Shown here piece after piece: positions 6,047 through 23,818 of a stretch of 32,000 bases of DNA (positions within the stretch are counted from its first letter, which is position 1; each line of letters begins with the position of its first letter). The translations under genes were made by a program, and so were the position numbers. The stretch covers positions 5,370,001 through 5,402,000 of the forward strand of contig NC_010296.1 of the NCBI RefSeq assembly GCF_000010625.1, written 5' to 3'. The notes under the pieces are model-generated. The model searched no databases. It was not told the origin of the DNA and saw nothing but the letters and a program-made list of their open reading frames with translations. This DNA comes from Microcystis aeruginosa NIES-843 (GTDB lineage Bacteria > Cyanobacteriota > Cyanobacteriia > Cyanobacteriales > Microcystaceae).

Positions 6047-7294
6047 CTGGACTGTTTCAGCTAAAATAGGGCAATAGCTCGAACAAGCAGAGGACATCAA
6101 TCATGGGAAGAGGTCGGCGAGATAAAGTCAATCTAACAGGGGAACAAAGAGAAAACCTCGAACAAATCAGTCGTAATGGCTATGCACCAGCTAAAAAAAT
6201 TCTCCACGCTCGGATTTTGCTGATGTGTGACGAGGGAGAACAGGCGAAAAGGAAATGGACAGATGAAGAAATAGGCGAAGCTTTAGAAGTTCATAGAAAT
6301 ACAGTGGGACGTATTCGTCAAAGATTTCTTCAAAAAGGCGAAAAACCAGCATTAGAACGGAAATCGAGAAAAACTCCCCCCACTCCGGCAAAAGTTGATG
6401 GAGCCGCCGCCGCCCAAATCATTGCCCTGTGCTGTTCGGAGCCACCATCTGGCCGAGCCGAGTGGACAATCCGACTATTAACCTCGGAACTCAAACAAAG
6501 ACAAATTATCACCGAGATTTCCAGTCCAACGGTGTGGCGTACTCTAAAAAAAACCAATTACGCCCTTGGAAAACCCAAAGATACTGTATTCCGGAACAGG
6601 ATTTAGCCCGATTTGTTGCCCAGATGGAAGTTGTCCTTGACCTGTATGGCACTCAGCCATCGGAAGAAGAACCGTTAATCGCGATGGATGAAGCATCAAA
6701 GCAACTACTTGGAGAAGTTTACCCTCCGATACCCATGCAACCTGGACAAGATAAAAAAGAAGACTATCACTATAGTCGTGAAGGGGTTCAAGCCTTGTTC
6801 ATGTTTTTTGACCCCCATCGAGGATGGAGACGGGTGAGTAACCGAGATAGTCGAACCCGAATAGATTGGGCAGAAGAAATTCGTCAATTATTGGATGTGG
6901 ACTATCCAAAGGCTCGAAAAGTCAAGCTCGTCTGTGATAATCTCAACACTCATAACATAGCCTCGCTTTATGAAGCATTTCCAGCACCCGTTGCTCATCG
7001 TTTAGCTAGAAGACTGGAAATTTATTACACACCTCGTAATGGTAGCTGGTTAAATGTAGCCGAAACTGAACTAAGCGTCTTATCGAGGCAATGTTTAGAT
7101 AGAAGGATTTCTAGCAAGGAAGAACTGAAAAGGGAGATAGAAACCTGGCAAAAAGAACGTAATCAGACTGCATCTACAGTAATATGGACGTTTACGACCA
7201 GCGATGCTAGGGTCAAGCTGAAACATCTTTATCCTGTGTTTGAGGAGGAGGAATCGGGAGAATCTATTGCACCAAATTAGCTGAAACAGTCCAC
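6047..7294 (+). mobile_element. IS630-family insertion sequence, copy type 2 (1248 bp)
   Basis: About 19-bp TIRs (CTGGACTGTTTCAGCTAA / TTAGCTGAAACAGTCCAC). Flanking TA at 6045-6046 and 7295-7296. The transposase is unrelated in sequence to copy type 1. Confidence 0.9.
6103..7280 (+). CDS. IS630-family transposase encoded in two frames (orfA 6103-6553, then -1 shift, orfB to 7280)
   Basis: orfA holds the HTH part and orfB the DDE part (VCDNLNTH, YTPRNGSWLNVAETELS). The A8 run at 6546-6553 joins ...TLKK to NQLRPWKTQRYCIP, recreating the family-typical LKKNxLxPW...CIP motif. Confidence 0.85.
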
Positions 7295-7311: not shown

Positions 7312-10300
7312 TTAAACTAATACAAGTATATTAGATGCGGTAAGAGTGGGTTTGGAACTGAGAGTTGCAATTTGAATGGCTGCTAGTGTACCTGTCCCGT
7401 CCCCATCAAAGAATAGTCCTCCAGTGATTGTATTATAAATAAAGCGATTGCTGGCATTTAATGCAGTTGTTCCTAACACGAATTGAGCGGCTGTAATCGC
7501 CACTCCTGCGGCTAAACCACCGCCAAAACCCGCAGCAGAGACAGTAATTTTATCCCCCTGACTGGAGAGAAAATCGGTAATTGTGTCAATCCCTTGATTG
7601 GGGTTTTTGAAGGTGAAGCGATCGCCACCTGCACCCCCTGTTATGGTATCATTACCAGTACCACCAATCAAGGTATCATTTCCCGCACTTCCTGTAAGGG
7701 TATTTTTACCACTATTACCAGTGATAATGTTATTTAATGTGTTACCTGTCCCATTAATATTTGCGGTTCCCGTTAACGTGAGGTTTTCTAGGTTATTTCC
7801 CAGGGTATAAGTAACTGATGATTGAACAGTATCTGTCCCTTGGTTGGCATTTTCCGTAATGGTATCGGTAGTAGTATCAACTTGATAAGTATCATTCCCT
7901 AAACCACCGATGAGGGTATCAATTCCTGTTGCACCATTAAGAATATTGTTACCACTATTACCGGTGATAATGTTATTTAATGTGTTACCTGTCCCGTTAA
8001 TATTTGCGGTTCCCGTTAACGTGAGGTTTTCTAGGTTATTTCCCAGGGTATAAGTAACTGATGATTGAACAGTATCTGTCCCTTGGTTGGCATTTTCCGT
8101 AATGGTATCGGTAGTAGTATCAACTTGATAAGTATCATTCCCTAAACCACCGATGAGGGTATCAATTCCTGTTGCACCATTAAGAATATTGTTACCACTA
8201 TTACCGGTGATAATGTTATTTAATGTGTTACCTGTCCCGTTAATATTTGCGGTTCCCGTTAACGTGAGGTTTTCTAGGTTATTTCCCAGGGTATAAGTAA
8301 CTGATGATTGAACAGTATCTGTCCCTTGGTTGGCATTTTCCGTAATGGTATCGGTAGTAGTATCAACTTGATAAGTATCATTCCCTAAACCACCGATGAG
8401 GGTATCAATTCCTGTTGCACCATTAAGAATATTGTTACCACTATTACCGGTGATAATGTTATTTAATGTGTTACCTGTCCCGTTAATATTTGCGGTTCCC
8501 GTTAACGTGAGGTTTTCTAGGTTATTTCCCAGGGTATAAGTAACTGATGATTGAACAGTATCTGTCCCTTGGTTGGCATTTTCCGTAATGGTATCGGTAG
8601 TAGTATCAACTTGATAAGTATCATTCCCTAAACCACCGATGAGGGTATCAATTCCTGTACCTCCATTAAGGATATTGTTACCACTATTACCGGTGATAAT
8701 GTTATTAGCAGCGTTACCTGTCCCATTAATATTTGTAGTCCCAGTTAGGGTCAGATTTTCCACATTAGCGGGTAGGGTAGTGGTGACATTAGCGGTTAAG
8801 GTGTCGCTGATGGTGACAATTCCCTTGTTATTGGTAAGAGTTGCATTGATGGGATTACTGAGGTTAATGGCAAAAGTTTCGTTTGCCTCATTGAGGTTAT
8901 CATTAAGGATGGGAATGGTAATAGTAGCAGTGGAAGTATTAGGTGCAATGGTGATAGTTCCGGTTTTGCTAGTGTAATCTACATTAGCGGTAGCGTTAAT
9001 GGGTGCAGTGGTATAGTTGAAGGTAATTGGTTGTGAATTGGGGTTATCAACTGTGACGGTGAGGATGGCATTATTATCTTTACCTTCCACTACGGTGATA
9101 TTATTGATGGAGAGTTTGGAGAAATCGTCATTAGTAATTGTCCCCGTCACTGCGGTGGCGGTCCCCACTGTATAACCAGTACCTGAAGCAAGAGTTAAAG
9201 CGACGGTTTCGTTATTTTCAACTGTAGTGTCAGCAGTGGGGTCAACTGTTACGGTAGCAGTGGATGAATTAGCAGCGAAGGTGACTGTATTGGTAGTCCC
9301 TGTACGAGTGTAGTCGGTATTGAGGGTAGCTGTCCCTCCGAGGGTGTAATTGACTGTTAAGGAATTAGTGGTTACTCCGCTACGAGTGAAGGTATAAACC
9401 AGATTTGTTGTCCCGTCTTCGTTAACACTTGCAGGGGAGACTGCTAAGCTAATAACGACAATTGTCCCTTGCTCTTCAAATGCACCAATATCTACTGTAC
9501 CACCAAAGATGCGATTGAATCCTGTTCCTCGTTGATCAAAGGGAATTTGTTCGGTCGTGTCACCATCACCATCAATATCTTCGCTATCAACAAGAATAAG
9601 GCTATTGTTTCCTGCATTAATCGCCGGACTTCCTGCTAAAAGTGCATGGGTCAGAGTTAAACCCCCATAGTTAGCTAAAGGAGCAAGTCCAGGATTAGAA
9701 TTAACAATATCAGTTCCTGTGCCAATCGTTCCTTTTGCACCAGTTAAATCACCGATAAGGTTGTAGTTATTGCCATTAAATATCGCACCAGATAACCCAG
9801 AAGAAAGTAAATCGAAACCATTAGTTGTATTATCTATATTTCCAGCAACAATTGTGTTTTTAAGAAAAAAGGTTGTACCAAGACTATAAATGCCGCCTCC
9901 ACCGCGTCGTCCAACAAATTGAGTGTCAACGACAGTATTATTGGTAATTGTGCTATTAATCAAATTAAATGTGTCACCAGAAGAATATATGCCACCTCCA
10001 GCATAACTTGCATTATTGCCACTAACGGTTGTATTGATCAAAGCCATTGAAGTACCGTTGTTCGTTATGCCTCCACCATTTCCCGCACTATTACCACTAA
10101 CAGTAGTATTGATCAGAGTCAGCGATCCAGCTACACTTGATATGCCACCTCCATAAACGCCTCCTTGATTATTATTAATTGTCGAGTTGATTGCAATTAG
10201 TGTTCCGCCTGAATTGTCAACGCCTCCGCCTTCCTGAAAACTACTACCACTAGCTATATTATTACTAACCACGCTACCCTGACGGAGATAGACAAAACCA

Positions 10301-11268
10301 CGATTCTGAATACCACCACCATTGCTAGAAGAACCAAGTGCCTTATTTCCACTTACAGTTGTGTTGTATAAGTCAAGAACACCTGTCGCATTAACACTAA
10401 TACCTGCGCCGGAAGAAGATATAATTCCCCCGGTTACTACGACATTCTGTAAGCTTAATGCACCTCCACTGAGAACATGAAAAACCCGATCAGAATTTAA
10501 TAATCCTGACGCATCAATAGTAGCTTTTTGTCCATTAAATGCTCCAATATAAAGCACATTATTACGAGACTTAATATCTAAGTCTCCCTTTTTTCCCTCA
10601 TTTTCATTAACGCCATTACTCGTTAGAGTATAGGTTAAGCCTCCTGTTAAATGAATTTCATATTCAGTATTCGGGTTAGCATTAGCAATTAAGATCGCAT
10701 CCCGCAAAGATAATCCATTATCAGCATTGCCATCATTTTGATCGGCGGTCGTATTAACGGTTAAAATAGTTGGTGCAGATTTTTCTACAGGAACATCATT
10801 TCCTGTGATTGTAATATTGGCAAAGTCATTTTCAGTTGTAATTCTTGCTACTTCTTGCGTTGTTAAATCTACTCCACGAACTAATGCTGCGAAATATTCT
10901 CCCTCATCTCCCGCGCTATCCACCTGATTAATTTGAGCATCCACATAATGCCCAATTTCTTCTAAAATTACATTAATTATCGTTGCTGACGAGGCCGTAT
11001 TCAAAAAAGATGCTGATAGATAAATCTTATTCTTACTGCTGGAATATGCACCATTCGCAGTCCCCAAAACCTCATCACTGAGTACCTCAATTGGGGGAAG
11101 TTGACTAAAATTTCGACTTTGCCACTGTTGTCGTAATTGCGTCGCCTTAACCACATCATAACTTGTCCCAAAAGCGGTTTCTAAATTCACCCAAAAGCCA
11201 TCAGATTGAGCGAAATTGAACAAAACATCGTCAACAGCAGGAAGAATCGGCAACAGGGTAGAAGTCAT
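7312..11268 (-). CDS. giant secreted RTX-type protein: N-terminal conserved leader domain, parallel beta-helix, Calx-beta-like domains, five 81-aa Ca-binding repeat modules, T1SS-type C-terminus
   Basis: 1318 aa. It has a CSLREA-like LSLRDAILIANANP followed by many xNTTVSGN/GGGI beta-helix turns. Calx-beta-like segments: TATVTVDPTADTTVENNETVALTL, TATITIPILNDNLNEANETFAINL. GGxGxD nonapeptides: GGLGNDTY, GGTGNDTITGGAGGDRFTF. There is no N-terminal signal peptide. Confidence 0.85.
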   Translation of the reverse strand: MTSTLLPILPAVDDVLFNFAQSDGFWVNLETAFGTSYDVVKATQLRQQWQSRNFSQLPPIEVLSDEVLGTANGAYSSSKNKIYLSASFLNTASSATIINVILEEIGHYVDAQINQVDSAGDEGEYFAALVRGVDLTTQEVARITTENDFANITITGNDVPVEKSAPTILTVNTTADQNDGNADNGLSLRDAILIANANPNTEYEIHLTGGLTYTLTSNGVNENEGKKGDLDIKSRNNVLYIGAFNGQKATIDASGLLNSDRVFHVLSGGALSLQNVVVTGGIISSSGAGISVNATGVLDLYNTTVSGNKALGSSSNGGGIQNRGFVYLRQGSVVSNNIASGSSFQEGGGVDNSGGTLIAINSTINNNQGGVYGGGISSVAGSLTLINTTVSGNSAGNGGGITNNGTSMALINTTVSGNNASYAGGGIYSSGDTFNLINSTITNNTVVDTQFVGRRGGGGIYSLGTTFFLKNTIVAGNIDNTTNGFDLLSSGLSGAIFNGNNYNLIGDLTGAKGTIGTGTDIVNSNPGLAPLANYGGLTLTHALLAGSPAINAGNNSLILVDSEDIDGDGDTTEQIPFDQRGTGFNRIFGGTVDIGAFEEQGTIVVISLAVSPASVNEDGTTNLVYTFTRSGVTTNSLTVNYTLGGTATLNTDYTRTGTTNTVTFAANSSTATVTVDPTADTTVENNETVALTLASGTGYTVGTATAVTGTITNDDFSKLSINNITVVEGKDNNAILTVTVDNPNSQPITFNYTTAPINATANVDYTSKTGTITIAPNTSTATITIPILNDNLNEANETFAINLSNPINATLTNNKGIVTISDTLTANVTTTLPANVENLTLTGTTNINGTGNAANNIITGNSGNNILNGGTGIDTLIGGLGNDTYQVDTTTDTITENANQGTDTVQSSVTYTLGNNLENLTLTGTANINGTGNTLNNIITGNSGNNILNGATGIDTLIGGLGNDTYQVDTTTDTITENANQGTDTVQSSVTYTLGNNLENLTLTGTANINGTGNTLNNIITGNSGNNILNGATGIDTLIGGLGNDTYQVDTTTDTITENANQGTDTVQSSVTYTLGNNLENLTLTGTANINGTGNTLNNIITGNSGNNILNGATGIDTLIGGLGNDTYQVDTTTDTITENANQGTDTVQSSVTYTLGNNLENLTLTGTANINGTGNTLNNIITGNSGKNTLTGSAGNDTLIGGTGNDTITGGAGGDRFTFKNPNQGIDTITDFLSSQGDKITVSAAGFGGGLAAGVAITAAQFVLGTTALNASNRFIYNTITGGLFFDGDGTGTLAAIQIATLSSKPTLTASNILVLV
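7716..8770 (-). repeat. 243-bp (81-codon) tandem repeat inside the giant gene: about 4 near-perfect copies plus diverged edge copies
   Basis: The GTAACTGATGATTGAACAG... unit starts at 7811, 8054, 8297 and 8540 (period exactly 243). The inner copies are identical by eye. Confidence 0.9.
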
Positions 11269-11298
11269 GACGTTAACTGCAACAGTTTATTGCTAACA

Positions 11299-11328
11299 AT
11301 TTTAGCCTAACAAGTGCAAATTTTTCAA
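11299..11328 (-). promoter_or_regulatory. sigma70-like promoter of the giant gene (TTGAAA - 18 nt - TAAAAT)
   Basis: On the minus strand, -35 is at 11328-11323 and -10 at 11304-11299, about 30 nt upstream of the ATG at 11268. The same architecture is conserved in four other copies. Confidence 0.45.
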
Positions 11329-11360
11329 GGGTGCTGTAACAGAAATTAATATTGATTACA

Positions 11361-11393
11361 AGAAAACGGGTTTCTTTAAGAAACCCGTTTTCT
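11361..11393 (-). terminator. 33-nt perfect hairpin (AGAAAACGGGTTTCTT T AAGAAACCCGTTTTCT), followed by an extra copy of the right arm (11394-11409)
   Basis: The 16-bp arms are exactly complementary. It lies immediately 3' of the Rpn-like A1 stop codon, and the U-rich 3' arm fits an intrinsic terminator. Confidence 0.55.
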
Positions 11394-11407
11394 AAGAAAC
11401 CCGTTTT

Positions 11408-12367
11408 CTAGATATTGATTTTTGCCAAAGACTGCTTAAATTCTGCGAGAGAATTAGCGGTAGCTGCTAATTTTAGTAGCTCTTCTAAGATAGTAGGGTT
11501 AGTCATTTTGCCGATTATCTCTTCAATTTCTGAAGAAATCTGTCCAAACCGCACAGTTAAAACTGTTTTTATGTCATCACGGCTTTTTTCTAGCACCCCA
11601 ATTTCTTTACCGCGTTCGATTCCTCGTAACTCCATATTACTCATTAAAGGCATGGTTTTTTCCTCCTCAAATTGTTTAATTTTACTCTCTAAGCTTGACT
11701 GCAATTCAGGGGATAAAGTCATCATATTGTCGATGATTTCAAACAGTTTAATTATCTGTTCCCTCTCGAACTCCTTTTCATATAATCCCCTGATTAACTT
11801 CCACTTCCACTGTTCCCGTTGTGGCAGCTTCCCAGTAGTCGCTTTTGTTTTCAGGTGTGCCATGACTATCATAGCAAAAGGATTGCTACTTGCTTCTAGT
11901 TCTGTCCATCTTTCCTCATAGTCCAGTAATTTAACCGTTGGGAATTTGAGGCTGACTTCACAACCGGCGATAGTATAATTATAGGAATCTGGTCGCCAAT
12001 TTACTCGTTCATCTCCTAATATAGCGAGACTGATAACCGGTTTCTGATACAAATCAAAGGCCCGATAGTTATAAATATACATCCTCTGAGGAAAATTTTC
12101 TTCGTATTGACTTTGAATTTCAATATGAATCAAAATCCAGACTTCTTCACCCCTGAGTAACCAAACTTTATAGAGTTTGTCAGCGAAACGTTTTTTGGTC
12201 TTTGCTGAAGCGGTAATCCGTTTGAGTTCTTTTTCTAGGGATTCGGGAATTTTTGTCCAATCAATTAATTGGTGAACTTCAGGAAAAAAGAAGTATAAAA
12301 ACGCTTCAAAATACTCGCTTAATGCTTCTTTCCAGGGTTCATCATAATTGGCGGTTGTTGGGTTCAT
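11408..12367 (-). CDS. YhgA/Rpn-like PD-(D/E)XK nuclease ('recombination-promoting nuclease/putative transposase') with DUF4351-type C-terminal tail, family A copy 1
   Basis: 319 aa. N-terminus YDEPWKEALSEYFEAF. Core: ADKLYKV...WILIHIEIQ...FPQRMYIYNY (a D...E.Q nuclease-like motif). Helical tail: TVLTVRFGQISSEIEEIIGKM...LAEFKQSL. It has one RGIERGKEIG hinge unit. Confidence 0.65.
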   Translation of the reverse strand: MNPTTANYDEPWKEALSEYFEAFLYFFFPEVHQLIDWTKIPESLEKELKRITASAKTKKRFADKLYKVWLLRGEEVWILIHIEIQSQYEENFPQRMYIYNYRAFDLYQKPVISLAILGDERVNWRPDSYNYTIAGCEVSLKFPTVKLLDYEERWTELEASSNPFAMIVMAHLKTKATTGKLPQREQWKWKLIRGLYEKEFEREQIIKLFEIIDNMMTLSPELQSSLESKIKQFEEEKTMPLMSNMELRGIERGKEIGVLEKSRDDIKTVLTVRFGQISSEIEEIIGKMTNPTILEELLKLAATANSLAEFKQSLAKINI

Positions 12368-12711
12368 TTGAGTTGTTTGCTTACTCGTAGGCTGTGAAGC
12401 GCGATAGCGTAACGCACCGATTTAATAATAGAGGTGGTGGTGGTAATCTGGGGATTTTGTGGTAAAAAAGCGGATATTTGTTCGATTCCGTCTTGATTGG
12501 GAGAGAGAATAACCGTGGCGACTTCTGGAATTACTCCAGCTTGGAGACTTTGATAATCGCTAACACCAGCATCGAGGAAAACTACGGTAGCGGTTAAACG
12601 CTGATTTCTCACACTATCCACCCGATTAGCTTGACTCAAGCCATCAGATTGAGCAAAATTGAACAAAACATCGTCAACAGCAGGAAAGCTCGGCAACAGG
12701 GTAGAAGTCAT
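12364..12711 (-). pseudogene. 5' fragment of a DUF4347-domain giant-protein gene (leader + truncated domain), reading into the Rpn-like A1 start
   Basis: MTSTLLPSFPAVDDVLFNFAQSDG matches the giant-gene start. It is followed by TATVVFLDAGVSDYQSLQAGVIPEVATVILSPNQDGIEQISAFL...QITT, which looks like a DUF4347 N-terminal half. The rest of such a gene is absent. Its stop overlaps the A1 ATG (ATGA). Confidence 0.7.
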
Positions 12712-12740
12712 GACGTTAACTGCAAAGGATTAATGCGACT

Positions 12741-12770
12741 ATTTTATGCAAACAATCGCCAATTTTTCAA
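12741..12770 (-). promoter_or_regulatory. sigma70-like promoter copy (TTGAAA - 18 nt - TAAAAT) in front of the leader fragment
   Basis: Same hexamers and spacing as at 11299-11328. Confidence 0.4.
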
Positions 12771-12799
12771 GGGGGATATAACAAAAATTAACATTATAC

Positions 12800-12832
12800 A
12801 GAAAACGGGTTTCTTTAAGAAACCCGTTTTCT
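12800..12832 (-). terminator. 33-nt perfect hairpin plus duplicated right arm (unit boundary)
   Basis: Identical to the hairpin at 11361-11393 and directly 3' of the A2 stop. Confidence 0.55.
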
Positions 12833-12846
12833 AAGAAACCCGTTTT

Positions 12847-13878
12847 CTAGATATTGATTTTAGCCAAAGACTGCTTAAATTCTGCGAGAGAATTAGCGGT
12901 AGCTGCTAATTTAACAATCCCTTGTAATGTAGATAGTACCGAAACTTTATTCAGGTATTGTTCCACATCTAAAGGAACTTCACCTAAGCGAGCTTGCAAA
13001 ACTGTTTTGACAAAATCACGAGCATTTTCTAACGCTCCGATTTCCTTGCCTATTTCTTTACCGCGTTCTATCCCTCGTAACTCCCCAATTTCCTTGCCAA
13101 TTTCCTTACCGATTTCCTTACCGCGTTCTATTCCTCGTAACTCCATATTACTCATTAAAGGCATCGTTCTTTCCTCCTCAAATTGTTTGATTTTACTCTC
13201 TAAACTTGACTGCAATTCAGGGGATAAAGTCATCATATTGTCGATGATTTCAAACAGTTTAATTATCTGTTCTCTCTCGAACTCCTTTTCATATAATCCC
13301 CTGATTAACTTCCACTTCCACTGTTCCCGTTGTGGCAGCTTCCCAGTAGTTGCTTTTGTTTTCAGGTGTGCCATGACTATTATAGCAAAGGGATTGCTAC
13401 TTGCTTCTAGTTCTGACCATCTTTCCTCATAGTCCAGTAATTTAACCGTTGGGAATTTGAGGCTGACTTCACAACCAGCGATAGTATAATTATAGGAATC
13501 TGGTCGCCAATTTACTCGTTCATCTCCTAATATAGCGAGACTGATAACTGGTTTCTGATACAAATCAAAGGCCCGATAGTTATAAATATACATCCTCTGA
13601 GGGAAATTTTCTTCGTATTGACTTTGAATTTCAATATGAATCAAAATCCAGACTTCTTCACCCCTGAGTAACCAAACTTTATAGAGTTTGTCAGCGAAAC
13701 GTTTTTTTGTCTTTGCTGAAGCGGTAATCCGTTTAAGTTCTTTTTCTAGGGATTCGGGAATTTTTGTCCAATCAATTAGTTGGTGAACTTCAGGAAAGAA
13801 GAAGCATAAAAACGCTTCAAAATACTCGCTTAATGCTTCTTTCCAGGGTTCATCATAATTGGCGGTTGTTGGGTTCAT
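12847..13878 (-). CDS. YhgA/Rpn-like nuclease with DUF4351-type tail, family A copy 2 (variant C-terminal cassette)
   Basis: 343 aa. It is near-identical to A1 and A3 except for hinge repeat number and a replaced ~39-codon block (FVKTVLQARLGEVPLDVEQYLNKVSVLSTLQGIV). Confidence 0.65.
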   Translation of the reverse strand: MNPTTANYDEPWKEALSEYFEAFLCFFFPEVHQLIDWTKIPESLEKELKRITASAKTKKRFADKLYKVWLLRGEEVWILIHIEIQSQYEENFPQRMYIYNYRAFDLYQKPVISLAILGDERVNWRPDSYNYTIAGCEVSLKFPTVKLLDYEERWSELEASSNPFAIIVMAHLKTKATTGKLPQREQWKWKLIRGLYEKEFEREQIIKLFEIIDNMMTLSPELQSSLESKIKQFEEERTMPLMSNMELRGIERGKEIGKEIGKEIGELRGIERGKEIGKEIGALENARDFVKTVLQARLGEVPLDVEQYLNKVSVLSTLQGIVKLAATANSLAEFKQSLAKINI

Positions 13879-14222
13879 TTGAGTTGTTTGCTTACTCGTA
13901 GGCTGTGAAGCGCGATAGCGTAACGCACCGATTTAATAATAGAGGTGGTGGTGGTAATCTGGGGATTTTGTGGTAAAAAAGCGGATATTTGTTCGATTCC
14001 GTCTTGATTGGGAGAGAGAATAACCGTGGCGACTTCTGGAATTACTCCAGCTTGGAGACTTTGATAATCGCTAACACCAGCATCGAGGAAAACTACGGTA
14101 GCGGTTAAACGCTGATTTCTCACACTATCCACCCGATTAGCTTGACTCAAGCCATCAGATTGAGCAAAATTGAACAAAACATCGTCAACAGCAGGAAAGC
14201 TCGGCAACAGGGTAGAAGTCAT
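13875..14222 (-). pseudogene. 5' fragment of a DUF4347-domain giant-protein gene (second copy)
   Basis: Protein identical to the 12364-12711 fragment, with the same ATGA overlap with the A2 start. Confidence 0.7.
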
Positions 14223-14251
14223 GACGTTAACTGCAAAGGATTAATGCGACT

Positions 14252-14281
14252 ATTTTATGCAAACAATCGCCAATTTTTCAA
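14252..14281 (-). promoter_or_regulatory. sigma70-like promoter copy (TTGAAA - 18 nt - TAAAAT)
   Basis: Same hexamers and spacing as at 11299-11328. Confidence 0.4.
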
Positions 14282-14310
14282 GGGGGATATAACAAAAATT
14301 AACATTATAC

Positions 14311-14343
14311 AGAAAACGGGTTTCTTTAAGAAACCCGTTTTCT
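14311..14343 (-). terminator. 33-nt perfect hairpin plus duplicated right arm (unit boundary)
   Basis: Identical to the hairpin at 11361-11393 and directly 3' of the A3 stop. Confidence 0.55.
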
Positions 14344-14357
14344 AAGAAACCCGTTTT

Positions 14358-15401
14358 CTAGATATTGATTTTAGCCAAAGACTGCTTAAATTCTGCGAGA
14401 GAATTAGCGGTAGCTGCTAATTTTAGTAGCTCTTCTAAGATAGTAGGGTTAGTCATTTTGCCGATTATCTCTTCAATTTCTGAAGAAATCTGTCCAAACC
14501 GCACAGTTAAAACTGTTTTTATGGCATCGCGGCTTTTTTGTAACGCGCCAATTTCTTTACCAATTTCCTTACCTATTTCTTTACCGCGTTCTATCCCTCG
14601 TAACTCCCCAATTTCCTTGCCAATTTCCTTACCGATTTCCTTACCGCGTTCTATTCCTCGTAACTCCATATTACTCATTAAAGGCATCGTTCTTTCCTCC
14701 TCAAATTGTTTGATTTTACTCTCTAAACTTGACTGCAATTCAGGGGATAAAGTCATCATATTGTCGATGATTTCAAACAGTTTAATTATCTGTTCCCTCT
14801 CGAACTCCTTTTCATATAATCCCCTGATTAACTTCCACTTCCACTGTTCCCGTTGTGGCAGCTTCCCAGTAGTCGCTTTTGTTTTCAGGTGTGCCATGAC
14901 TATTATAGCAAAGGGATTGCTACTTGCTTCTAGTTCTGACCAGCTTTCCTCATAGTCCAGTAATTTAACCGTTGGGAATTTGAGGCTGACTTCACAACCG
15001 GCGATAGTATAATTATAGGAATCTGGTCGCCAATTTACTCGTTCATCTCCTAATATAGCGAGACTGATAACCGGTTTCTGATACAAATCAAAGGCCCGAT
15101 AGTTATAAATATACATCCTCTGAGGAAAATTTTCTTCGTATTGACTTTGAATTTCAATATGAATCAAAATCCAGACTTCTTCACCCCTGAGTAACCAAAC
15201 TTTATAGAGTTTGTCAGCGAAACGTTTTTTGGTCTTTGCTGAAGCGGTAATCCGTTTGAGTTCTTTTTCTAGGGATTCGGGAATTTTTGTCCAATCAATT
15301 AATTGGTGAACTTCAGGAAAAAAGAAGTATAAAAACGCTTCAAAATACTCGCTTAATGCTTCTTTCCAGGGTTCATCATAATTGGCGGTTGTTGGGTTCA
15401 T
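14358..15401 (-). CDS. YhgA/Rpn-like nuclease with DUF4351-type tail, family A copy 3
   Basis: 347 aa. It has the longest hinge, (GKEI)3-GELRGIER-(GKEI)3, and an A1-type C-terminal tail. Confidence 0.65.
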   Translation of the reverse strand: MNPTTANYDEPWKEALSEYFEAFLYFFFPEVHQLIDWTKIPESLEKELKRITASAKTKKRFADKLYKVWLLRGEEVWILIHIEIQSQYEENFPQRMYIYNYRAFDLYQKPVISLAILGDERVNWRPDSYNYTIAGCEVSLKFPTVKLLDYEESWSELEASSNPFAIIVMAHLKTKATTGKLPQREQWKWKLIRGLYEKEFEREQIIKLFEIIDNMMTLSPELQSSLESKIKQFEEERTMPLMSNMELRGIERGKEIGKEIGKEIGELRGIERGKEIGKEIGKEIGALQKSRDAIKTVLTVRFGQISSEIEEIIGKMTNPTILEELLKLAATANSLAEFKQSLAKINI

Positions 15402-15455
15402 TTGAGTTGTTTGCTTACTCGTAGGCTGTGAAACGCGATAGCGTAACGCACCGAT

Positions 15456-15746
15456 TTAATAATAGAGGTGAATGGTGGTAATCTGGGGATTTTGTGGTAA
15501 AAAAGCGGATATTTGTTCGATTCCGTCTTGATTGGGAGTGAGAATAACGGTGGCGACTTCTGGAATTACTCCAGCTTGGAGACTTTGATAATCGCTAACA
15601 CCAGCATCGAGGAAAACTACGGTAGCGGTTAAACGCTGATTTCTCACACTATCCACCCGATTAGCTTGACTCAAGCCATCAGATTGAGCAAAATTGAACA
15701 AAACATCGTCAACAGCAGGAAAGCTCGGCAACAGGATAGAAGTCAT
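15456..15746 (-). pseudogene. 5' fragment of a DUF4347-domain giant-protein gene (third copy, ends ...QITTIHLYY-stop)
   Basis: Same sequence as the other two fragments, but it has 1 nt more in the GGT run. It therefore keeps the family-like ...TTIHL frame and stops 55 nt before the A3 ATG. Confidence 0.7.
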
Positions 15747-15775
15747 GACGTTAACTGCAAAGGATTAATGCGACT

Positions 15776-15805
15776 ATTTTATGCAAACAATCGCCAATTT
15801 TTCAA
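15776..15805 (-). promoter_or_regulatory. sigma70-like promoter copy (TTGAAA - 18 nt - TAAAAT)
   Basis: Same hexamers and spacing as at 11299-11328. Confidence 0.4.
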
Positions 15806-15834
15806 GGGGGATATAACAAAAATTAACATTATAC

Positions 15835-15867
15835 AGAAAACGGGTTTCTTTAAGAAACCCGTTTTCT
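15835..15867 (-). terminator. 33-nt perfect hairpin plus duplicated right arm (unit boundary)
   Basis: Identical to the hairpin at 11361-11393 and directly 3' of the A4 remnant stop. Confidence 0.55.
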
Positions 15868-15881
15868 AAGAAACCCGTTTT

Positions 15882-16670
15882 CTAGATATTGATTTTTGCC
15901 AAAGACTGCTTAAATTCTGCGAGAGAATTAGCGGTAGCTGCTAATTTTAGTAGCTCTTCTAAGATAGTAGGGTTAGTCATTTTGCCGATTATCTCTTCAA
16001 TTTCTGAAGAAATCTGTCCAAACCGCACAGTTAAAACTGTTTTTATGGCATCGCGGCTTTTTTGTAACGCGCCAATTTCTTTACCAATTTCCTTACCTAT
16101 TTCTTTACCGCGTTCTATTCCTCGTAACTCCCCAATTTCCTCACCAATTTTCCTTCCTCGTAACTCCATATTACTTACTAAAGGCATGGTTCTTTCCTCC
16201 TCAAATTGTTTGATTTTACTCTCTAAGCTTGACTGCAATTCAGGGGATAAAGTCATCATATTGTCGATGATTTCAAACAGTTTAATTATCTGTTCCCTCT
16301 CGAACTCCTTTTCATATAATCCCCTGATTAACTTCCACTTCCACTGTTCCCGTTGTGGCAGCTTCCCAGTAGTCGCTTTTGTTTTCAGGTGTGCCATGAC
16401 TATTATAGCAAAAGGATTGCTGCTTGCTTCCAATTAGTCACTGATAACTGATAACTGATAACTGATAACTGAATAGAGTTTGTCAGCGAAACGTTTTTTT
16501 GTCTTTGCTGAAGCGGTAATCCGTTTAAGTTCTTTTTCTAGGGATTCGGGAATTTTTGTCCAATCAATTAGTTGGTGAACTTCAGGAAAGAAGAAGCATA
16601 AAAACGCTTCAAAATACTCGCTTAATGCTTCTTTCCAGGGTTCATCATAATTGGCGGTTTGTGATGTCAT
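15882..16670 (-). pseudogene. family A Rpn-like gene copy 4 with an internal ~280-bp deletion replaced by heptamer repeats
   Basis: The N-terminal 66 codons (16473-16670) and the C-terminal ~180 codons (15882-16430) align to A2 and A3. The nuclease core (LIHIEIQ...) is missing. The filler is CAATTAGTCA(CTGATAA)4CTGAA. Confidence 0.8.
16441..16473. repeat. (CTGATAA)4 heptamer microsatellite at the A4 deletion junction
   Basis: Four exact CTGATAA units plus CTGAA. A related array lies at 18979-19005. Confidence 0.9.
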
Positions 16671-16775
16671 GTTTTAGGTTGTAACTCTATTGTATAATCT
16701 CATCCGAGATGTCAGTACAAGGGGGATGCTTCCCGCGTTAACCCTTCTCTTTCAATCAAAACTCACTTGAAGTCC

Positions 16776-16808
16776 AGAAAACGGGTTTCTTAAAGAAACC
16801 CGTTTTCT
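16776..16808 (-). terminator. 33-nt hairpin variant (AGAAAACGGGTTTCTT A AAGAAACCCGTTTTCT) between family B copy 1 and A4
   Basis: Same arms as the unit-boundary hairpin. It lies about 55 nt 3' of the B1 stop. Confidence 0.5.
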
Positions 16809-16865: not shown

Positions 16866-17861
16866 TTACAGGGTAATTAAAGTATTTAACCAATTGATTA
16901 AATCTTCAACCGTAGAAAAATCGAATAAAGCTTCTCCTAATACTTCGACATCATCAATACTTAACTGCATAATTTTAGTTTCCAATGAAGGATTAATCTC
17001 CCCTAACTTGCGTTTAATTTGACGAAGAATCAATGTCTTTTCGCGTTCGATACCTTGTTCGATACCTTGTTCAATACCTTGTTCAATACCTTGTTCAATA
17101 CCCCGTTCGATACCTTGTTCAATACCTAGTTCAATACCTTGACGCATCCAACTGGTAGTAATTTGCATAACTCCCTCCTGTACGGGTTGACTAAATGTGC
17201 TAATCTCTTGTTGAAATTGTATCTCTTCGACCGGATTTAGATTGAGATAAGTATCAATAAATCCAGAAATTAATTCCATTTTCGCAGGATTTAACCTTAA
17301 AGTAATTAACAAGCGCAGACATTCGGCCTTAACTTTTGCTCGCTCTTTCTCGGCAATGTTCATCTTCGCCATCAAAGCTGAAGCAACCGGATTCGGCTGA
17401 TTGAGAAAATCTCGCCAATTTAATCGATTTAACTGCACTACTTGATAGTTAAATTCTAAGACTTTTAAATCAGGAAAATCGACTACATATTGACTAATCG
17501 CTTCTCTTTTTGGCTTTGAATAAGAAAAAATTACAATCGGATAAATCGGTAAGACAAATTTCTCATGAAAGCGAGCAAAATAAGTAAACATTCGCCGGTT
17601 AAACCACTTTCGGGAACTTTCCTGCGCCTCTACATGAATCAGAAAAAAAGATTCTTTTCCTCGAAACTTAACCTGTGCGACTAAATCACTTTCATACCTT
17701 TCTCCTTCCGTGACATCTGTAAATACTTCTTTGTCTAAAAAAGTAATCGATTCCCTATCTAAATAATCTATCAATTGAGGGAAAAACAACTCGATAAATT
17801 CGACAAAAAAGGTGGAGATTAACTCCTTAAATAAGCGATAATGGTCAATATTATTAGTCAT
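16866..17861 (-). CDS. YhgA/Rpn-like PD-(D/E)XK nuclease ('Rpn family recombination-promoting nuclease/putative transposase') with DUF4351 tail, family B copy 1
   Basis: 331 aa. N-terminus DHYRLFKELISTFFVEFIELFFPQ. Core: ESDLVAQV...FFLIHVEAQ...FNRRMFTYFARF. Also LNRLNWRDFLNQPNPVASALMAKM. The hinge is (GIEx)8. The tail LILRQIKRKLGEINPSLETKIMQLSIDDVEVLGEALFDFSTVEDLINWL is DUF4351-like. Confidence 0.75.
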   Translation of the reverse strand: MTNNIDHYRLFKELISTFFVEFIELFFPQLIDYLDRESITFLDKEVFTDVTEGERYESDLVAQVKFRGKESFFLIHVEAQESSRKWFNRRMFTYFARFHEKFVLPIYPIVIFSYSKPKREAISQYVVDFPDLKVLEFNYQVVQLNRLNWRDFLNQPNPVASALMAKMNIAEKERAKVKAECLRLLITLRLNPAKMELISGFIDTYLNLNPVEEIQFQQEISTFSQPVQEGVMQITTSWMRQGIELGIEQGIERGIEQGIEQGIEQGIEQGIEREKTLILRQIKRKLGEINPSLETKIMQLSIDDVEVLGEALFDFSTVEDLINWLNTLITL

Positions 17862-17960: not shown

Positions 17961-18065
17961 TTAACCTACAGCGATTGCCAAATTCGCCCAAAAACCATCA
18001 GATTGAGCAAAATCGAACAAACTATCGTAAACAGCAGGAAAAATCGGCAAAAGAGAAGAAGTCAT
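17961..18065 (-). pseudogene. 34-codon stub of a giant-protein gene (MTSSLLPIFPAVYDSLFDFAQSDGFWANLAIAVG-stop) abutting the family B unit
   Basis: It is homologous at DNA and protein level to the first 34 codons of the 1318-aa gene (…FAQSDGFWVNLETAFG…). Homology ends at about 17969, where the family B unit begins. Confidence 0.7.
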
Positions 18066-18095
18066 GACTATAACTGCAAAAGTTTATTGCTAACA

Positions 18096-18125
18096 GTTTT
18101 AGCCCAACAATCCCCAATTTTTCAA
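18096..18125 (-). promoter_or_regulatory. sigma70-like promoter copy (TTGAAA - 18 nt - TAAAAC) in front of the leader stub
   Basis: Same position and spacing relative to the ATG as in the other four copies. The flanking sequence is closest to the giant-gene copy. Confidence 0.4.
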
Positions 18126-18240
18126 GGGTGCTATCACAAAAATTAACATTTATTACAAGAAAACGGGTTTCTCGTAATGTTCACTACCCGATGAAATTGC
18201 TCTGGTAAAATGTCCATAATAGACAAGAGAGAATTTACTT

Positions 18241-18453
18241 ATGAGTGTAGCCGACGAAATTTACAAAATCGTGAAATCAATGCCTGAAGATCGAGCGAAT
18301 AAAATTTTGGATTTTGCAAAGTTTTTGCAAGCTAAACCAGAGTTAGAAGATAAGCCATTAGATTTCCGCGATGCGGCGGGATTGGGGCAAGAAATGTGGC
18401 AATCAATTGATGTAGATGCTTATATTCAGCAGGAGCGATCATCATGGGAATAG
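18241..18453 (+). CDS. type II antitoxin (VapB-position small protein, DUF2281-like N-terminus)
   Basis: 70 aa. It overlaps the downstream PIN gene by 10 nt. N-terminal pattern: IYKIVKSMPEDRANKILDFAKFLQ. Confidence 0.6.
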   Translation: MSVADEIYKIVKSMPEDRANKILDFAKFLQAKPELEDKPLDFRDAAGLGQEMWQSIDVDAYIQQERSSWE

Positions 18454-18878
18454 TTTTACAACCGGGAAATATTGTATTTTTAGATACGGCTCCTTTTATT
18501 GACTTTTTCGAGCAACATCCCATCTTTTTTCCTTATATGGAAAAGTTATTTTATGATGTCTCCATTTATCAGGTTAAGGTTATCACTTCGATGATCACTT
18601 TTATCGAAATTGTTACCCATCCAGCAAGGATAGGTAATCAGGAGTTGGTAGAACAATACCGGACATATTTCACCCGTTCGAGCCAAATTACTCTGTTACC
18701 AATCGATTTATCTATTGCTAAGGAGGCGATCGCTCTTCCTACCCAATACACTCTCAAAACACCCGATGCGATTCAACTGGGAACAGCGATCGCATATTCA
18801 GCAACCTACATTATCACTAATGATAGGCAATGGAAACAGTTAACTCATCAAAATGTATTGCTAGTAGATGAAATGTAG
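18444..18878 (+). CDS. vapC: PIN-domain ribonuclease toxin (VapC family)
   Basis: 144 aa. The conserved acidic positions are visible (FLDTAPF, FIEIV, TPDAIQLGTA, IITNDRQW). It is translationally coupled to the upstream small ORF. Confidence 0.75.
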   Translation: MGIVLQPGNIVFLDTAPFIDFFEQHPIFFPYMEKLFYDVSIYQVKVITSMITFIEIVTHPARIGNQELVEQYRTYFTRSSQITLLPIDLSIAKEAIALPTQYTLKTPDAIQLGTAIAYSATYIITNDRQWKQLTHQNVLLVDEM

Positions 18879-19028: not shown

Positions 19029-20036
19029 TTACAGGGTAATTAAAGTATTTAACCAATTGATTAAATCTTCAACCGTAGAAAAATCGAATAAAGCTTCTCC
19101 TAATACTTCGACATCATCAATACTTAACTGCATAATTTTAGTTTCCAATGAAGGATTAATCTCCCCTAACTTGCGTTTAATTTGACGAAGAATCAATGTC
19201 TTTTCCCGTTCAATACCTTGTTCGATACCTTGTTCAATACCTTGTTCAATACCTTGTTCAATACCTTGTTCAATACCCCGTTCGATACCTTGTTCAATAC
19301 CTAGTTCAATACCTTGACGCATCCAACTGGTAGTAATTTGCATAACTCCCTCCTGTACGGGTTGACTAAATGTGCTAATCTCTTGTTGAAATTGTATCTC
19401 TTCGACCGGATTTAGATTGAGATAAGTATCAATAAATCCAGAAATTAATTGCATTCTCGCCGCATCTAACCTTAAAGTAATTAACAAGCGCAGACATTCG
19501 GCCTTAACTTTTGCTCGCTCTTTCTCGGCAATGTTCATCTTCGCCATCAAAGCTGAAGCAACCGGATTCGGCTGATTGAGAAAATCTCGCCAATTTAATC
19601 GATTTAACTGCACTACTTGATAGTTAAATTCTAAGACTTTTAAATCAGGAAAATCGACTACATATTGACTAATTGCTTCTCTTTTTGGCTTTGAATAAGA
19701 AAAAATTACAATCGGATAAATCGGTAAGACAAATTTCTCATGAAAGCGAGCAAAATAAGTAAACATTCGCCGGTTAAACCACTTTCGGGAACTTTCCTGC
19801 GCCTCTACATGAATCAGAAAAAAAGATTCTTTTCCTCGAAACTTAACCTGTGCGACTAAATCACTTTCATACCTTTCTCCTTCCGTGACATCGGTAAATA
19901 CTTCTTTGTCTAAAAAAGTAATCGAGTCCCTATCTAAATAATCTATCAATTGAGGGAAAAACAACTCGATAAATTCGACAAAAAAGGTGGAGATTAACTC
20001 CTTAAATAAGCGATCATGGTCAATATTATTAGTCAT
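19029..20036 (-). CDS. YhgA/Rpn-like nuclease with DUF4351 tail, family B copy 2
   Basis: 335 aa. It is near-identical to B1, differing by an extra GIEQ unit, a small patch (DAARMQ vs NPAKME) and two point changes. Confidence 0.75.
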   Translation of the reverse strand: MTNNIDHDRLFKELISTFFVEFIELFFPQLIDYLDRDSITFLDKEVFTDVTEGERYESDLVAQVKFRGKESFFLIHVEAQESSRKWFNRRMFTYFARFHEKFVLPIYPIVIFSYSKPKREAISQYVVDFPDLKVLEFNYQVVQLNRLNWRDFLNQPNPVASALMAKMNIAEKERAKVKAECLRLLITLRLDAARMQLISGFIDTYLNLNPVEEIQFQQEISTFSQPVQEGVMQITTSWMRQGIELGIEQGIERGIEQGIEQGIEQGIEQGIEQGIEREKTLILRQIKRKLGEINPSLETKIMQLSIDDVEVLGEALFDFSTVEDLINWLNTLITL

Positions 20037-20089
20037 GTAATGTCATCTTAACTAATCTGAGCGATGAATGACTACTCTTCTCTATTATA

Positions 20090-20293
20090 GGGTTTGCTGA
20101 AAAAGTTTCTCGTGGGGGCAGGGTGTGGGGTGTAGGGTGTAGGGTTTTACCCATTTTCAGGTGGTCAATTACCTAATTTTCAGGGAAAAAGTACCTGAAT
20201 TTTACCCCCGATCACTCCGATAGCCAGTACTTTTTGATTTCCCAAAAGTCTAAAAGTCTTACCCAACAAGGTTTTTAGATTTATTCAGCAAGC
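20090..20293. mobile_element. MITE (~204 bp) with a G-rich GGGGTGT/AGGGTGT heptamer tract
   Basis: Left end GGGTTTGCTGAA..., right end ...TTCAGCAAGC. A 9-10 bp direct duplication (C)TCTATTATA lies at 20080-20089 and 20293-20302. The uninterrupted equivalent site is present upstream of B1 (17901-17920). Confidence 0.8.
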
Positions 20294-20392
20294 TCTATTA
20301 TATTCTGAGAAGTCGGTTTTGGCAACGGATTGTTATGACCTTACCCCCTTAACTTACGAGGAGAGGGGGATGCTTCCCGCAAAAAACCCCAC

Positions 20393-20425
20393 AGAAAACG
20401 GGTTTCTTGAAGAAACCCGTTTTCT
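20393..20425 (-). terminator. 33-nt hairpin variant (AGAAAACGGGTTTCTT G AAGAAACCCGTTTTCT)
   Basis: Same arms as the unit-boundary hairpins. It lies upstream of the B2 unit. Confidence 0.45.
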
Positions 20426-23583: not shown

Positions 23584-23590
23584 CTATTTA

Positions 23591-23805
23591 GGGTTTGCAG
23601 CAAAAAGTTTGTTGGTGGGGACAGGGTGTGGGGTGTGGGGTGTGGGGTGTAGGGTTTTACCCATTTTCAGGGGGTTAATTACCTAATTTTCAGGGAAAAA
23701 GTCCAGGGATTTTCCCCCCGATCACTCCCATATCTGGTACTTTTTGATTGACAAAAGGTCTAAAAGTGTTACCCAACAAGGTTTTCAGATTTATTCAGCA
23801 AACCC
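23591..23805. mobile_element. MITE (~215 bp), same family as 20090-20293
   Basis: TIRs GGGTTTGCAGCAAA / TTATTCAGCAAACCC. The 10-bp duplication TAACTATTTA (23581-23590 and 23806-23815) includes the stop codon of the upstream gene. It has a longer GGGGTGT tract. Confidence 0.85.
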
Positions 23806-23818
23806 TAACTATTTATCC

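Follow-up and report, generated by a model that had tools for sequence, protein, structure and literature searches.

A 32,000-nt stretch of the genome of Microcystis aeruginosa NIES-843 (contig NC_010296.1, positions 5,370,001 to 5,402,000; hereafter the window, whose own coordinates are used throughout) carries a cluster of six Rpn/YhgA-like genes, four of one type (A1 to A4) and two of a paralogous type (B1 and B2), beside an intact gene for a giant secreted-type protein of 1318 aa. The minus strand carries all the relevant genes. When the four hairpin-to-hairpin segments of the A region are aligned and their identities compared segment by segment, they show three complete units of 1.44-1.52 kb that stand head to tail, each bounded by a hairpin. 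The hairpin is a 33-nt perfect palindrome, AGAAAACGGGTTTCTTTAAGAAACCCGTTTTCT, and recomputing its positions gave starts at 11361, 12800, 14311 and 15835, with periods of 1439, 1511 and 1524 nt, the values reported in a preliminary description of this DNA. Each complete unit comprises the hairpin, a promoter-like region (TTGAAA-18-TAAAAT), an ATG and 24 codons common to the 1318-aa gene (the leader), about 70 codons that match the DUF4347 domain, a 63-nt junction, and an A gene of 319, 343 or 347 aa. The promoter motif occurs on the minus strand at four places, 11328, 12770, 14281 and 15805, the first of which belongs to the giant gene (Table 1).

The units are 96-100% identical outside the hinge and the C-terminal cassette of the A genes. 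Units 1 and 2 agree across all 433 nt of promoter, fragment and junction, from which unit 3 differs at 5 sites, and a 1-nt length difference between units falls at the junction. The cassette of unit 2 matches the other copies at 67 of 123 positions, compared with 118-123 of 123 among the others. The DUF4347 portion breaks off after ...TTIHL and accounts for positions 1-52 of the 164 in the profile. Nothing in the window matches residues 95 to ~790 of the intact DUF4347 protein of M. aeruginosa KW, and the window's DUF4347 sequences are 5' fragments, not genes. The preliminary description had listed the minus-strand promoter motif, the 24 shared codons, the cut at ...TTIHL, the 319-347-aa genes, the 12-nt hinge repeats, the single swapped C-terminal cassette and the 1-nt indel, and all of these were found; it had also stated that the 3' remainder of the DUF4347 gene is absent from the window, which is so, and the gene body stands intact at the end of an equivalent array in strain KW.

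Other parts of that description are modified by our results. It spoke of a fourfold amplification, but there are three leader-bearing units and one different, core-deleted copy. This fourth segment (15835-16775, 941 nt) has neither leader nor DUF4347 fragment and carries an upstream region of its own; in place of about 270 nt that encode the nuclease core it has a (TCAGTTA)4-5 heptamer, which leaves open reading frames (ORFs) of 78 and 183 aa. A4 thus lacks the D...ExQ residues of the core and retains an internal start and the C-terminal part. The extent given, 11195-16808, covers the array only, and the locus continues past 16808 through a hairpin at 16776, B1, a fifth and diverged leader, a VapBC-like pair and B2 to a hairpin at 20393. 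The upstream regions of A4 and B2 are of non-leader types. At its other end the array does run into an intact giant gene, as described, but with a diverged relative of the array leader and not the same one: the array leaders are 99-100% identical to each other, and the giant gene's leader is only ~81% identical to them.

The 14-nt half-site of the palindrome occurs 17 times in the window against 0.01 expected, including the copies at 16776, 18158 (half only) and 20393. Folded as RNA, the hairpin forms 15 base pairs with an energy of -23 to -27 kcal/mol (z about -4 to -6), and UUUUCU comes after the stem; copy 1 gave -24.9 kcal/mol and z -5.9. It lies directly 3' of each gene and is therefore read as an intrinsic terminator, probably a bidirectional one, judging from fold and position. 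A scan for consensus terminators made no call at the hairpin because the U-run was counted into the stem. A search of Rfam over 10.5-21 kb returned for it sub-threshold chance matches alone (L20 leader, mir-981), so the hairpin represents no known RNA family. The array hairpins also carry an extra 16-nt direct half-copy (11377-11410, 12816-12849, 14327-14360 and 15851-15884) that is absent at 16776 and 20393.

At the level of sequence, we regard the assignment of the A and B genes to the Rpn/YhgA-like PD-(D/E)XK family (PF04754, TIGR01784, COG5464) as well supported by homologues and profile comparison, in agreement with the preliminary family call, although the window's A proteins themselves score below the cut-offs of the curated models. 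B1 and B2 score 73.8 and 73.6 bits on DUF4351 (PF14261; cut-off 25; E 1e-20), and B2 reaches 20.3 bits against PF04754. The A proteins have no direct DUF4351 match; A and B are homologous end to end, including the C-terminus (E 4e-19). The family is large, with 2748 matches in a database clustered at 90% identity and 5953 clusters at 50% identity. Across an alignment of 48 diverse homologues, D63, H81, E83, Q85, K146 and M239 are conserved in at least 90%; PF04754 matches 17 of the 48 (best E 3.6e-7) and DUF4351 matches 11. The family profile aligns with Escherichia coli RpnA (hhalign E 1.7e-4, probability 50%), placing D63/E83/Q85 of the A proteins on D63/E82/Q84 of RpnA. The closest homologues of A3 are M. 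aeruginosa proteins 93% identical to it, homologues that are 87% identical carry names such as 'Rpn family...' or 'RpnC/YadD family', and for full-length homologues with 42% identity on plasmids of Nostoc PCC 7120 RefSeq gives the name 'Rpn family recombination-promoting nuclease/putative transposase'. An exact look-up of A1 returned no record, no relative emerged from the PDB by sequence or profile search, and a phage collection contained no homologue. An AlphaFold model (pLDDT 92.8) predicts an alpha-beta-beta-beta-alpha-beta core at residues 45-117, a 59-residue helix and then three short helices, with helix 244-302 predicted at pLDDT >90. Sub-significant Foldseek matches include PD-(D/E)XK enzymes; neither of the models submitted, full-length or C-terminal, gave a significant match, so the fold evidence is descriptive only. 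One metagenome protein (P0032 from JGI, 447 aa) joins a 75%-identical A homologue to a PIN domain (PF01850), which may be a fusion or a mis-called adjacent toxin gene.

Rpn genes have been described as toxin-antitoxin genes within genes, in which a small C-terminal protein, RpnS, translated from an internal start, blocks the full-length nuclease, RpnL (Zhong et al. 2023, PNAS, PMC10400941, and the commentary published with it). In RpnA the internal start is M244, with its ribosome-binding site in codons 240-241; four-residue (dodecamer) repeats begin 8-20 residues after the internal Met in the long helix that both products share, and the number of repeats varies between strains and decides which RpnS neutralises which RpnL (PMC10400941). 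The C-terminal domains vary, RpnS genes that stand alone carry the annotation DUF4351, and rpn genes can have additional small copies downstream (PMC10400941). According to the same study, Rpn arrays form when regions are directly duplicated in tandem, and neither inverted repeats nor target duplications accompany this; it found no evidence for autonomous rpn transposition (PMC10400941).

As far as their sequences go, the A and B genes mirror these published traits in their internal start, repeats, DUF4351-type C-terminus, tandem arrangement and C-terminal-only copies. GAGGAGG stands 8 nt before the in-frame ATG of M239 in A1-A4, and AGGAGG 6 nt before that of M232 in B1 and B2. Genera that retain the signal include Crocosphaera, Calothrix, Cronbergia, Dolichospermum and Geminocystis. 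The two Glu codons that encode it are GAG in 31 of 32 non-Microcystis genes, versus 21% GAG elsewhere in those genes, and in 60 of 60 Microcystis genes, versus a background of 22%; synonymous positions flanking the signal do vary. Since the genes are related, a binomial p-value for this bias overstates independence. From the internal Met candidates M239, M242 and M245 it is 9-15 residues to the first KEIG/GIEQ repeat. In a set of 78 copies from Microcystis, the segment that begins at M239 and ends with the repeats spans 15-47 residues, usually in increments of 4, and four principal types of C-terminal tail recur. Every copy in the window is distinct in repeat number or cassette (Table 1), so the copies are probably mutually insulated toxin/antitoxin pairs, by analogy with the system of Zhong et al.

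The A4 form is not confined to this window: a core-deleted, A4-like allele with the same heptamer occurs at no fewer than four other loci, from at least two other Microcystis genomes (L043, L017, L007 and L022), and is found in several species. The allele has one 3' joint and two different 5' joints, and the heptamer TCAGTTA is found in intergenic regions too. Many Microcystis loci also contain C-terminal-only ORFs (116-118 aa and 160-175 aa) directly after full A genes. By their sequences, A4 and these ORFs look like the class of stand-alone RpnS genes known as RpnSs.

The 63-nt junction (12368-12430, 13879-13941 and 15402-15464) is part of a small inverted-repeat element of the kind called repetitive extragenic palindrome or miniature inverted-repeat transposable element (REP/MITE-like), GTAGGGTGCGTTAGG ... 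CCGTAACGCACCACCTCTATTATTAAATCGGTGCGTTACGC ... CACCCTAC, organised as GTAGGGTG...CACCCTAC with an internal GGTGCGTTAC/GTAACGCACC pair. Normally the element lies just 3' of a giant-gene stop codon, as in loci L001 (at 20932), L005 (at 16437) and L048 (at 6754). Comparison with the intact DUF4347 gene of strain KW allowed the joint to be deduced. With a slash marking the break, the intact gene reads ...ATTACCACCATTCACCTC/GTTTCC and the element ...GCACCACCTC/TATTATT; unit 3 reads ...ATTCACCTCTATTATT, with the microhomology CACCTC, and units 1 and 2 read ...ATTACCACCACCACCTCTATT, in the alternative register ACCACC. This alternative register explains both the 1-nt indel and the two lengths of leader ORF, 115 aa and 96 aa, and both forms occur in other strains. 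So deduced, the unit joins codon 94 of a DUF4347 gene illegitimately, through microhomology, to the element. Either ~5 kb of the gene body were deleted, or the joint marks where a tandem duplication ended. The progenitor-like layouts in L001 and L048 (leader, intact DUF4347 gene, then element) fit the deletion route.

The units have exchanged sequence since. Site patterns are mosaic (abab and abba), with units 1=3 and 2=4 in the N-terminal part and 1=4 and 2=3 at other sites, which points to later gene conversion among units. The preliminary description had proposed unequal crossing-over between the direct repeats that bracket the segment. Tandem amplification is well supported, but the giant gene's leader, at only ~81% identity, is not a recent exchange partner, and the sequences suggest that recent crossing-over was most likely between the near-identical units themselves.

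A scan that covered one genome per species and included long-read complete genomes detected the chimeric unit, with the same joint and 90-99% identical, in many genomes of Microcystis, the complete ones having it at several loci each; the array is therefore no isolated oddity. Copy number and composition of the arrays vary between strains, as the comparison with related genomes proposed in the preliminary description brought out. The KW array lies in a gene neighbourhood different from that of the window and runs leader-fragment-A, A, leader-fragment-A, two C-terminal fragments and finally the intact 1774-aa DUF4347 gene, the first 407 nt of which are 93% identical to the window fragments. Outside Microcystis, orthologues are mostly single and not beside giant genes, with one exception in Geminocystis. 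A 686-nt contig in an assembly of Nocardioides allogilvus (L023, NZ_PZYX01000055.1) encodes a protein with 90% identity to Microcystis A and is probably contamination.

We consider it likely that the window holds a cluster of six Rpn genes, each probably a self-contained toxin-antitoxin gene, whose composite units arose from a microhomology joint and were amplified by unequal homologous recombination. The full-length, RpnL-like protein would be a DNA nuclease. The internal start (GAGGAGG, ATG at codon 239 in A and 232 in B) would yield a small RpnS-like protein of the DUF4351 type that would pair with its own long form through the long helix of four-residue repeats and silence it. An illegitimate, microhomology-mediated joint, made by deletion of the DUF4347 body or as a tandem-duplication end-point, would have created the composite segment of hairpin, giant-gene promoter, 24-codon leader, DUF4347 codons 25-94, element piece and rpn gene. 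Unequal homologous recombination would then have amplified it, first between the flanking hairpin/leader repeats and later between whole units. The copies would have diversified in 12-nt repeat number and C-terminal cassette, one of them losing its nuclease core, while gene conversion would keep the remainder nearly identical. What the analysis shows is how the locus is built, its homology, the joint, the conservation of the internal start signal and the occurrence in other genomes; the toxicity of the nuclease, the antitoxin role, the terminator role of the hairpin, rpn transcription from the captured promoter and any anti-phage role are predictions.

Several results weigh against this explanation. 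The A proteins of the window stay below the curated cut-offs: against a threshold of 21 bits they reach 16.8-17.5 on PF04754, and against one of 52.1 they reach 17.6 on TIGR01784. In Foldseek searches of the PDB the best E was 0.19 for the full-length model and 3.2 for the C-terminal model, and RpnA-S was not among the matches. No PADLOC v2 model matches A, and the window neighbours are housekeeping genes, IS630 copies and one VapBC-like pair, with no obvious defence island. Lastly, a simple random-duplication model leaves unexplained how short the leader fragments before rpn genes are: all have 25-115 codons, versus source genes of 1300-2200 codons.

This last point concerns a broader linkage between leaders and rpn genes. 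An N-terminal search for leader-bearing proteins returned short or partial proteins only, so we assessed the linkage by neighbourhood look-ups and by a leader-pattern scan of metagenome contigs. Loci retrieved via the leader-bearing N-terminus alone all have an A or B gene or fragment upstream. The metagenome contigs, which were chosen by a 26-nt leader pattern alone and are not independent of each other, gave a hairpin within 200 nt upstream of 39 of 43 leader copies (those with at least 600 nt upstream). An rpn gene ends within 300 nt upstream or starts within 900 nt downstream in 26 of the 31 leader copies that could be evaluated on both sides (~84%), and 34 of 43 head short, closed (truncated) ORFs. 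In two complete genomes, 7-8 of 9 A loci are closely followed downstream by a gene of 754-2220 aa. At least three independent joints put a short leader fragment before an rpn gene: DUF4347(1-94)/A, RTX-type(1-33)/B1, and an RTX-type leader/A in L080. The linkage could stem from hitch-hiking of homologous blocks, from selection in favour of promoter capture or from a hot-spot of breakage near the leader.

One process that would complement local amplification is movement of the 1.5-kb unit as a cassette, looped out between leader/hairpin copies or carried by transforming DNA and re-entering leader loci by homologous recombination, so that the array and the dispersed copies would reflect this movement and not purely local amplification. 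We think this possible, though on balance improbable. The same joint lies at unlinked sites in single complete genomes (FBCC-A1114 at 1.15 and 3.49 Mb, L013 and L019) and in BLCC-F210 at 1.70 Mb (L043), the neighbourhoods differ between KW and the window, and leader and hairpin copies flank almost every unit. The units nevertheless have no terminal inverted repeats, target duplications or adjacent recombinase gene, the work of Zhong et al., which found no evidence for autonomous rpn transposition (PMC10400941), speaks against it, and Microcystis genomes are so heavily rearranged that the unlinked copies could be old segmental duplications. A ComEC-type competence gene (Competence and DUF4131 domains) at 26944-29103, 7 kb from the cluster, has also been counted in favour of such movement; it is only a reminder that uptake and recombination of foreign DNA are plausible in Microcystis.

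A rather doubtful alternative gives the leader ORF a function as an upstream ORF, not a scar: selection may have favoured capture of the giant-gene promoter, which with the leader ORF would drive rpn expression and, via an ATGA overlap, couple it translationally. The independent leader-before-rpn joints fit this, as do the -35 and -10 hexamers, which each of the three array copies has kept intact, and the 115-aa form, which ends in ATGA on the A start codon; the 115-aa and 96-aa forms also both persist across strains. However, the 96-aa form has no overlap and leaves a 55-nt gap, the B1 leader has TAAAAC instead of TAAAAT, and A4 and B2 have other upstream regions. The ratio of nonsynonymous to synonymous substitution rates (dN/dS) of the leader fragment, ~0.45, points the same way as the joints, but it comes from only 7 distinct sequences and is not significant.

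An unlikely third alternative makes the link between rpn and giant genes a functional one. The hairpin/leader would be a preferred site of breakage or exchange, and the adjacent Rpn nuclease would stimulate the exchange or shortening of giant surface-protein genes behind a single promoter; this would amount to a variation system, and the leader fragments would be its scars. The rpn and hairpin adjacency of leader copies, the position of most A loci of the two complete genomes just upstream of a large gene, the predominance of leader copies that head truncated ORFs, and the mosaic nature of giant genes, which have a common leader and some internal modules, are all consistent with it. These are correlations only, drawn in part from contigs that are not independent samples; hitch-hiking of homologous blocks accounts for the linkage, and orthologues in other cyanobacteria are single-copy and away from giant genes, Geminocystis excepted. 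The characterised Rpn nuclease, moreover, is said to have low sequence specificity. We give still less credence to the stronger form of this idea, in which the hairpin-promoter-leader module and rpn are one system: Rpn would break DNA at the hairpin/leader or close to it, and giant surface-protein genes would be swapped, truncated or silenced as the dispersed leader copies recombine. If true, it would resemble surface-antigen variation, perhaps serving escape from phages or grazers, and the short leader fragments would be its footprints. Mis-expansion of a single unit by the assembler is very improbable: draft Microcystis contigs do often end inside A genes, but the copies here are distinguishable by hinge length, one cassette, one core deletion and two junction alleles, and equivalent arrays stand in complete chromosomes of other strains.

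Known types of mobile element were also considered and rejected. A transposon or insertion sequence does not agree with one palindromic hairpin per unit at a single boundary in place of a terminal inverted repeat pair, with a DUF4347 joint that is a microhomology junction and has no target duplication, or with rpn-segment ends that differ between loci. An integron-like cassette would require ends and a recombinase that are not present. A simple insertion into the DUF4347 gene was replaced by the microhomology deletion or duplication joint described above.

Table 1. Coordinates of the cluster and its flanking features within the window
Feature	Position	Strand	Remarks
Giant secreted-type gene	7312..11268	-	1318 aa, intact; RTX nonapeptide, Calx-beta and choice-of-anchor Q domains; first 24 codons are the leader
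Giant gene promoter and 5' region	11269..11360	-	TTGAAA 11328-11323, TAAAAT 11304-11299; ~81% identical to array leaders
Hairpin copy 1	11361..11409	.	33-nt palindrome plus extra 16-nt half-copy; 3' of A1
A1	11408..12367	-	Rpn-like, 319 aa; D63/E83/Q85 intact; one KEIG repeat; C-terminal type 1
A1 internal Shine-Dalgarno sequence (SD)	11662-11668	-	GAGGAGG
A1 internal ATG	11651-11653	-	M239
Unit 1 junction	12368..12430	-	Fragment of small inverted-repeat (REP/MITE-like) element
Unit 1 leader ORF	12364..12711	-	115 aa: 24 leader codons, DUF4347 codons 25-91, junction read-through; stop overlaps A1 start (ATGA)
Unit 1 promoter copy	12712..12799	-	TTGAAA-18-TAAAAT 12770-12741
Hairpin copy 2	12800..12848	.	
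A2	12847..13878	-	Rpn-like, 343 aa; five xEIG repeats; C-terminal type 3; internal ATG 13162-13164
A2 swapped C-terminal cassette	about 12913-13035	-	Type 3, 54% identical to others
Unit 2 leader/DUF4347 fragment ORF and promoter copy	13875..14310	-	ORF 13875-14222, 115 aa
Hairpin copy 3	14311..14359	.	
A3	14358..15401	-	Rpn-like, 347 aa; six xEIG repeats (12-nt and 60-nt repeats 14540-14667); C-terminal type 1
A3 internal SD	14696-14702	-	
A3 internal ATG	14685-14687	-	
Unit 3 junction, leader/DUF4347 ORF and promoter copy	15402..15834	-	ORF 15456-15746, 96 aa, intact-gene frame ...TTIHL
Hairpin copy 4	15835..15883	.	
A4	15882..16775	-	Core-deleted; five variant repeats; C-terminal type 1; own upstream region 16671-16775; N-terminal stub 16434-16670; heptamer (TCAGTTA)n 16440-16472
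A4 C-terminal ORF	15882-16433	-	183 aa: internal start and RpnS-like part
Hairpin copy 5	16776..16808	.	Simple palindrome, after B1
B1	16866..17861	-	Paralogous Rpn-like, 331 aa; C-terminal DUF4351; (GIEQ)n repeats 17045-17141
B1 internal SD	17173-17179	-	AGGAGGG
B1 internal ATG	17166-17168	-	M232
Fifth leader copy	about 17961..18172	-	Half hairpin, promoter-like region, 34 RTX-type giant-gene codons, fused to B1 upstream region
B2	19029..20036	-	335 aa, DUF4351; 97% identical to B1, one four-residue repeat difference
Hairpin copy upstream of B2	20393..20425	.	

The surroundings of the cluster hold further repeats and mobile DNA. The giant gene contains 4.3 near-perfect 243-nt tandem repeats at 7701-8735 (98% matches) and, at 8614-9453, a 282-aa module 78% identical to the C-terminal part of the KW DUF4347 giant; this common module marks the giant exoprotein genes as mosaics that share modules. 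Two IS630-type (DDE_3) transposase genes, at 4842-5885 and 6103-7280, abut its 3' end, the second split into two overlapping ORFs, apparently by a frameshift. The VapBC-like pair lies at 18241-18878 on the plus strand, between B2 and the leader fragment of B1, and its second ORF is a putative PIN domain protein; M. aeruginosa PCC 9808 has a UPF0175 and DUF3368 pair in the same slot between a B gene and a leader (L080 5107-5846, L081 2502-2968). A dispersed repeat of ~230 nt occurs in the B2 upstream region at 20058-20299 and again at 23584-23811, 3.3 kb away, and twice in the KW locus L002.

Much of what the window contains has counterparts elsewhere. With the RpnL/RpnS genes of E. coli (RpnA-E) and the plasmid-borne RpnP2 the cluster shares the D...ExQ core (63/83/85 in A, 63/82/84 in RpnA), a predicted internal ribosome-binding site and ATG near residue 240, many copies per genome, variable four-residue repeats in the long first helix (KEIG/GIEQ here, KGIE in RpnC) and a variable, small helical C-terminal domain (DUF4351). 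It differs from RpnA in sequence, with ~25% identity over the first 100 residues and scores below the Pfam and TIGRFAM cut-offs, and in its cyanobacterial host. Compared with E. coli Rpn, the hinge has a higher-order 60-nt duplication and the C-termini, known here from sequence, fall into four discrete, exchangeable types. Tandem rpn arrays such as that of Bacillus thuringiensis (26 copies; PMC10400941) likewise consist of head-to-tail copies without terminal inverted repeats or target-site duplications, with different duplication types within one genus and copies that differ in repeat number. Unlike in those arrays, the segment amplified here includes the hairpin, the promoter and the first 94 codons of a giant gene, so that each copy has a captured promoter and leader ORF, and copies of the chimeric unit are scattered over several loci and among Microcystis species. 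A4, with its C-terminal part and internal start, and the C-terminal-only ORFs after full A genes have their parallel in RpnSs (ypaA/rpnE-Ss, DUF4351), but in A4 the core is replaced by the (TCAGTTA)n heptamer and an N-terminal stub is left. As in classical amplification by unequal crossing-over, the segment is bracketed by direct repeats, repeated head to tail and homogenised by gene conversion; here, in contrast, the flanking repeat is a promoter/leader module common to a family of giant exoprotein genes and the cargo is a putatively recombinogenic nuclease.

The novelty claimed in the preliminary description for arrays of leader fragment plus Rpn was therefore overstated, given that tandem rpn arrays, variable repeats, varying C-termini and C-terminal-only copies are known (PMC10400941). 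That description had also held that a fixed, widely conserved and already annotated locus would be no novelty, and to a large extent this is such a locus: the unit is present in many genomes, in numbers that vary, and where sources give these genes a name it is mostly 'hypothetical protein'. In the library searched, no paper turned up on this locus, on cyanobacterial Rpn arrays, or on DUF4347 or DUF4351 in Microcystis. The gene system and the way its arrays form have already been described in other bacteria, and the window holds a cyanobacterial member. What it adds is the co-amplified promoter and first codons of a giant surface-protein gene, together with a strong linkage of rpn and leader.

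In summary, the cluster would extend the architecture of an antitoxin inside the toxin gene to cyanobacteria, where a Shine-Dalgarno sequence kept at synonymous sites, repeat numbers that change in four-residue steps and four interchangeable kinds of C-terminus offer unusually clear sequence evidence for it. Near-identical copies that differ only in repeats or cassette form a natural set for probing the specificity of RpnL-RpnS pairing. The array also presents a concrete route by which a nuclease gene can be amplified and pick up a promoter, namely a microhomology joint followed by unequal crossing-over. Finally, the adjacency of rpn genes and giant-gene leaders may help to explain the plasticity of Microcystis genomes and of their cell-surface gene repertoires.

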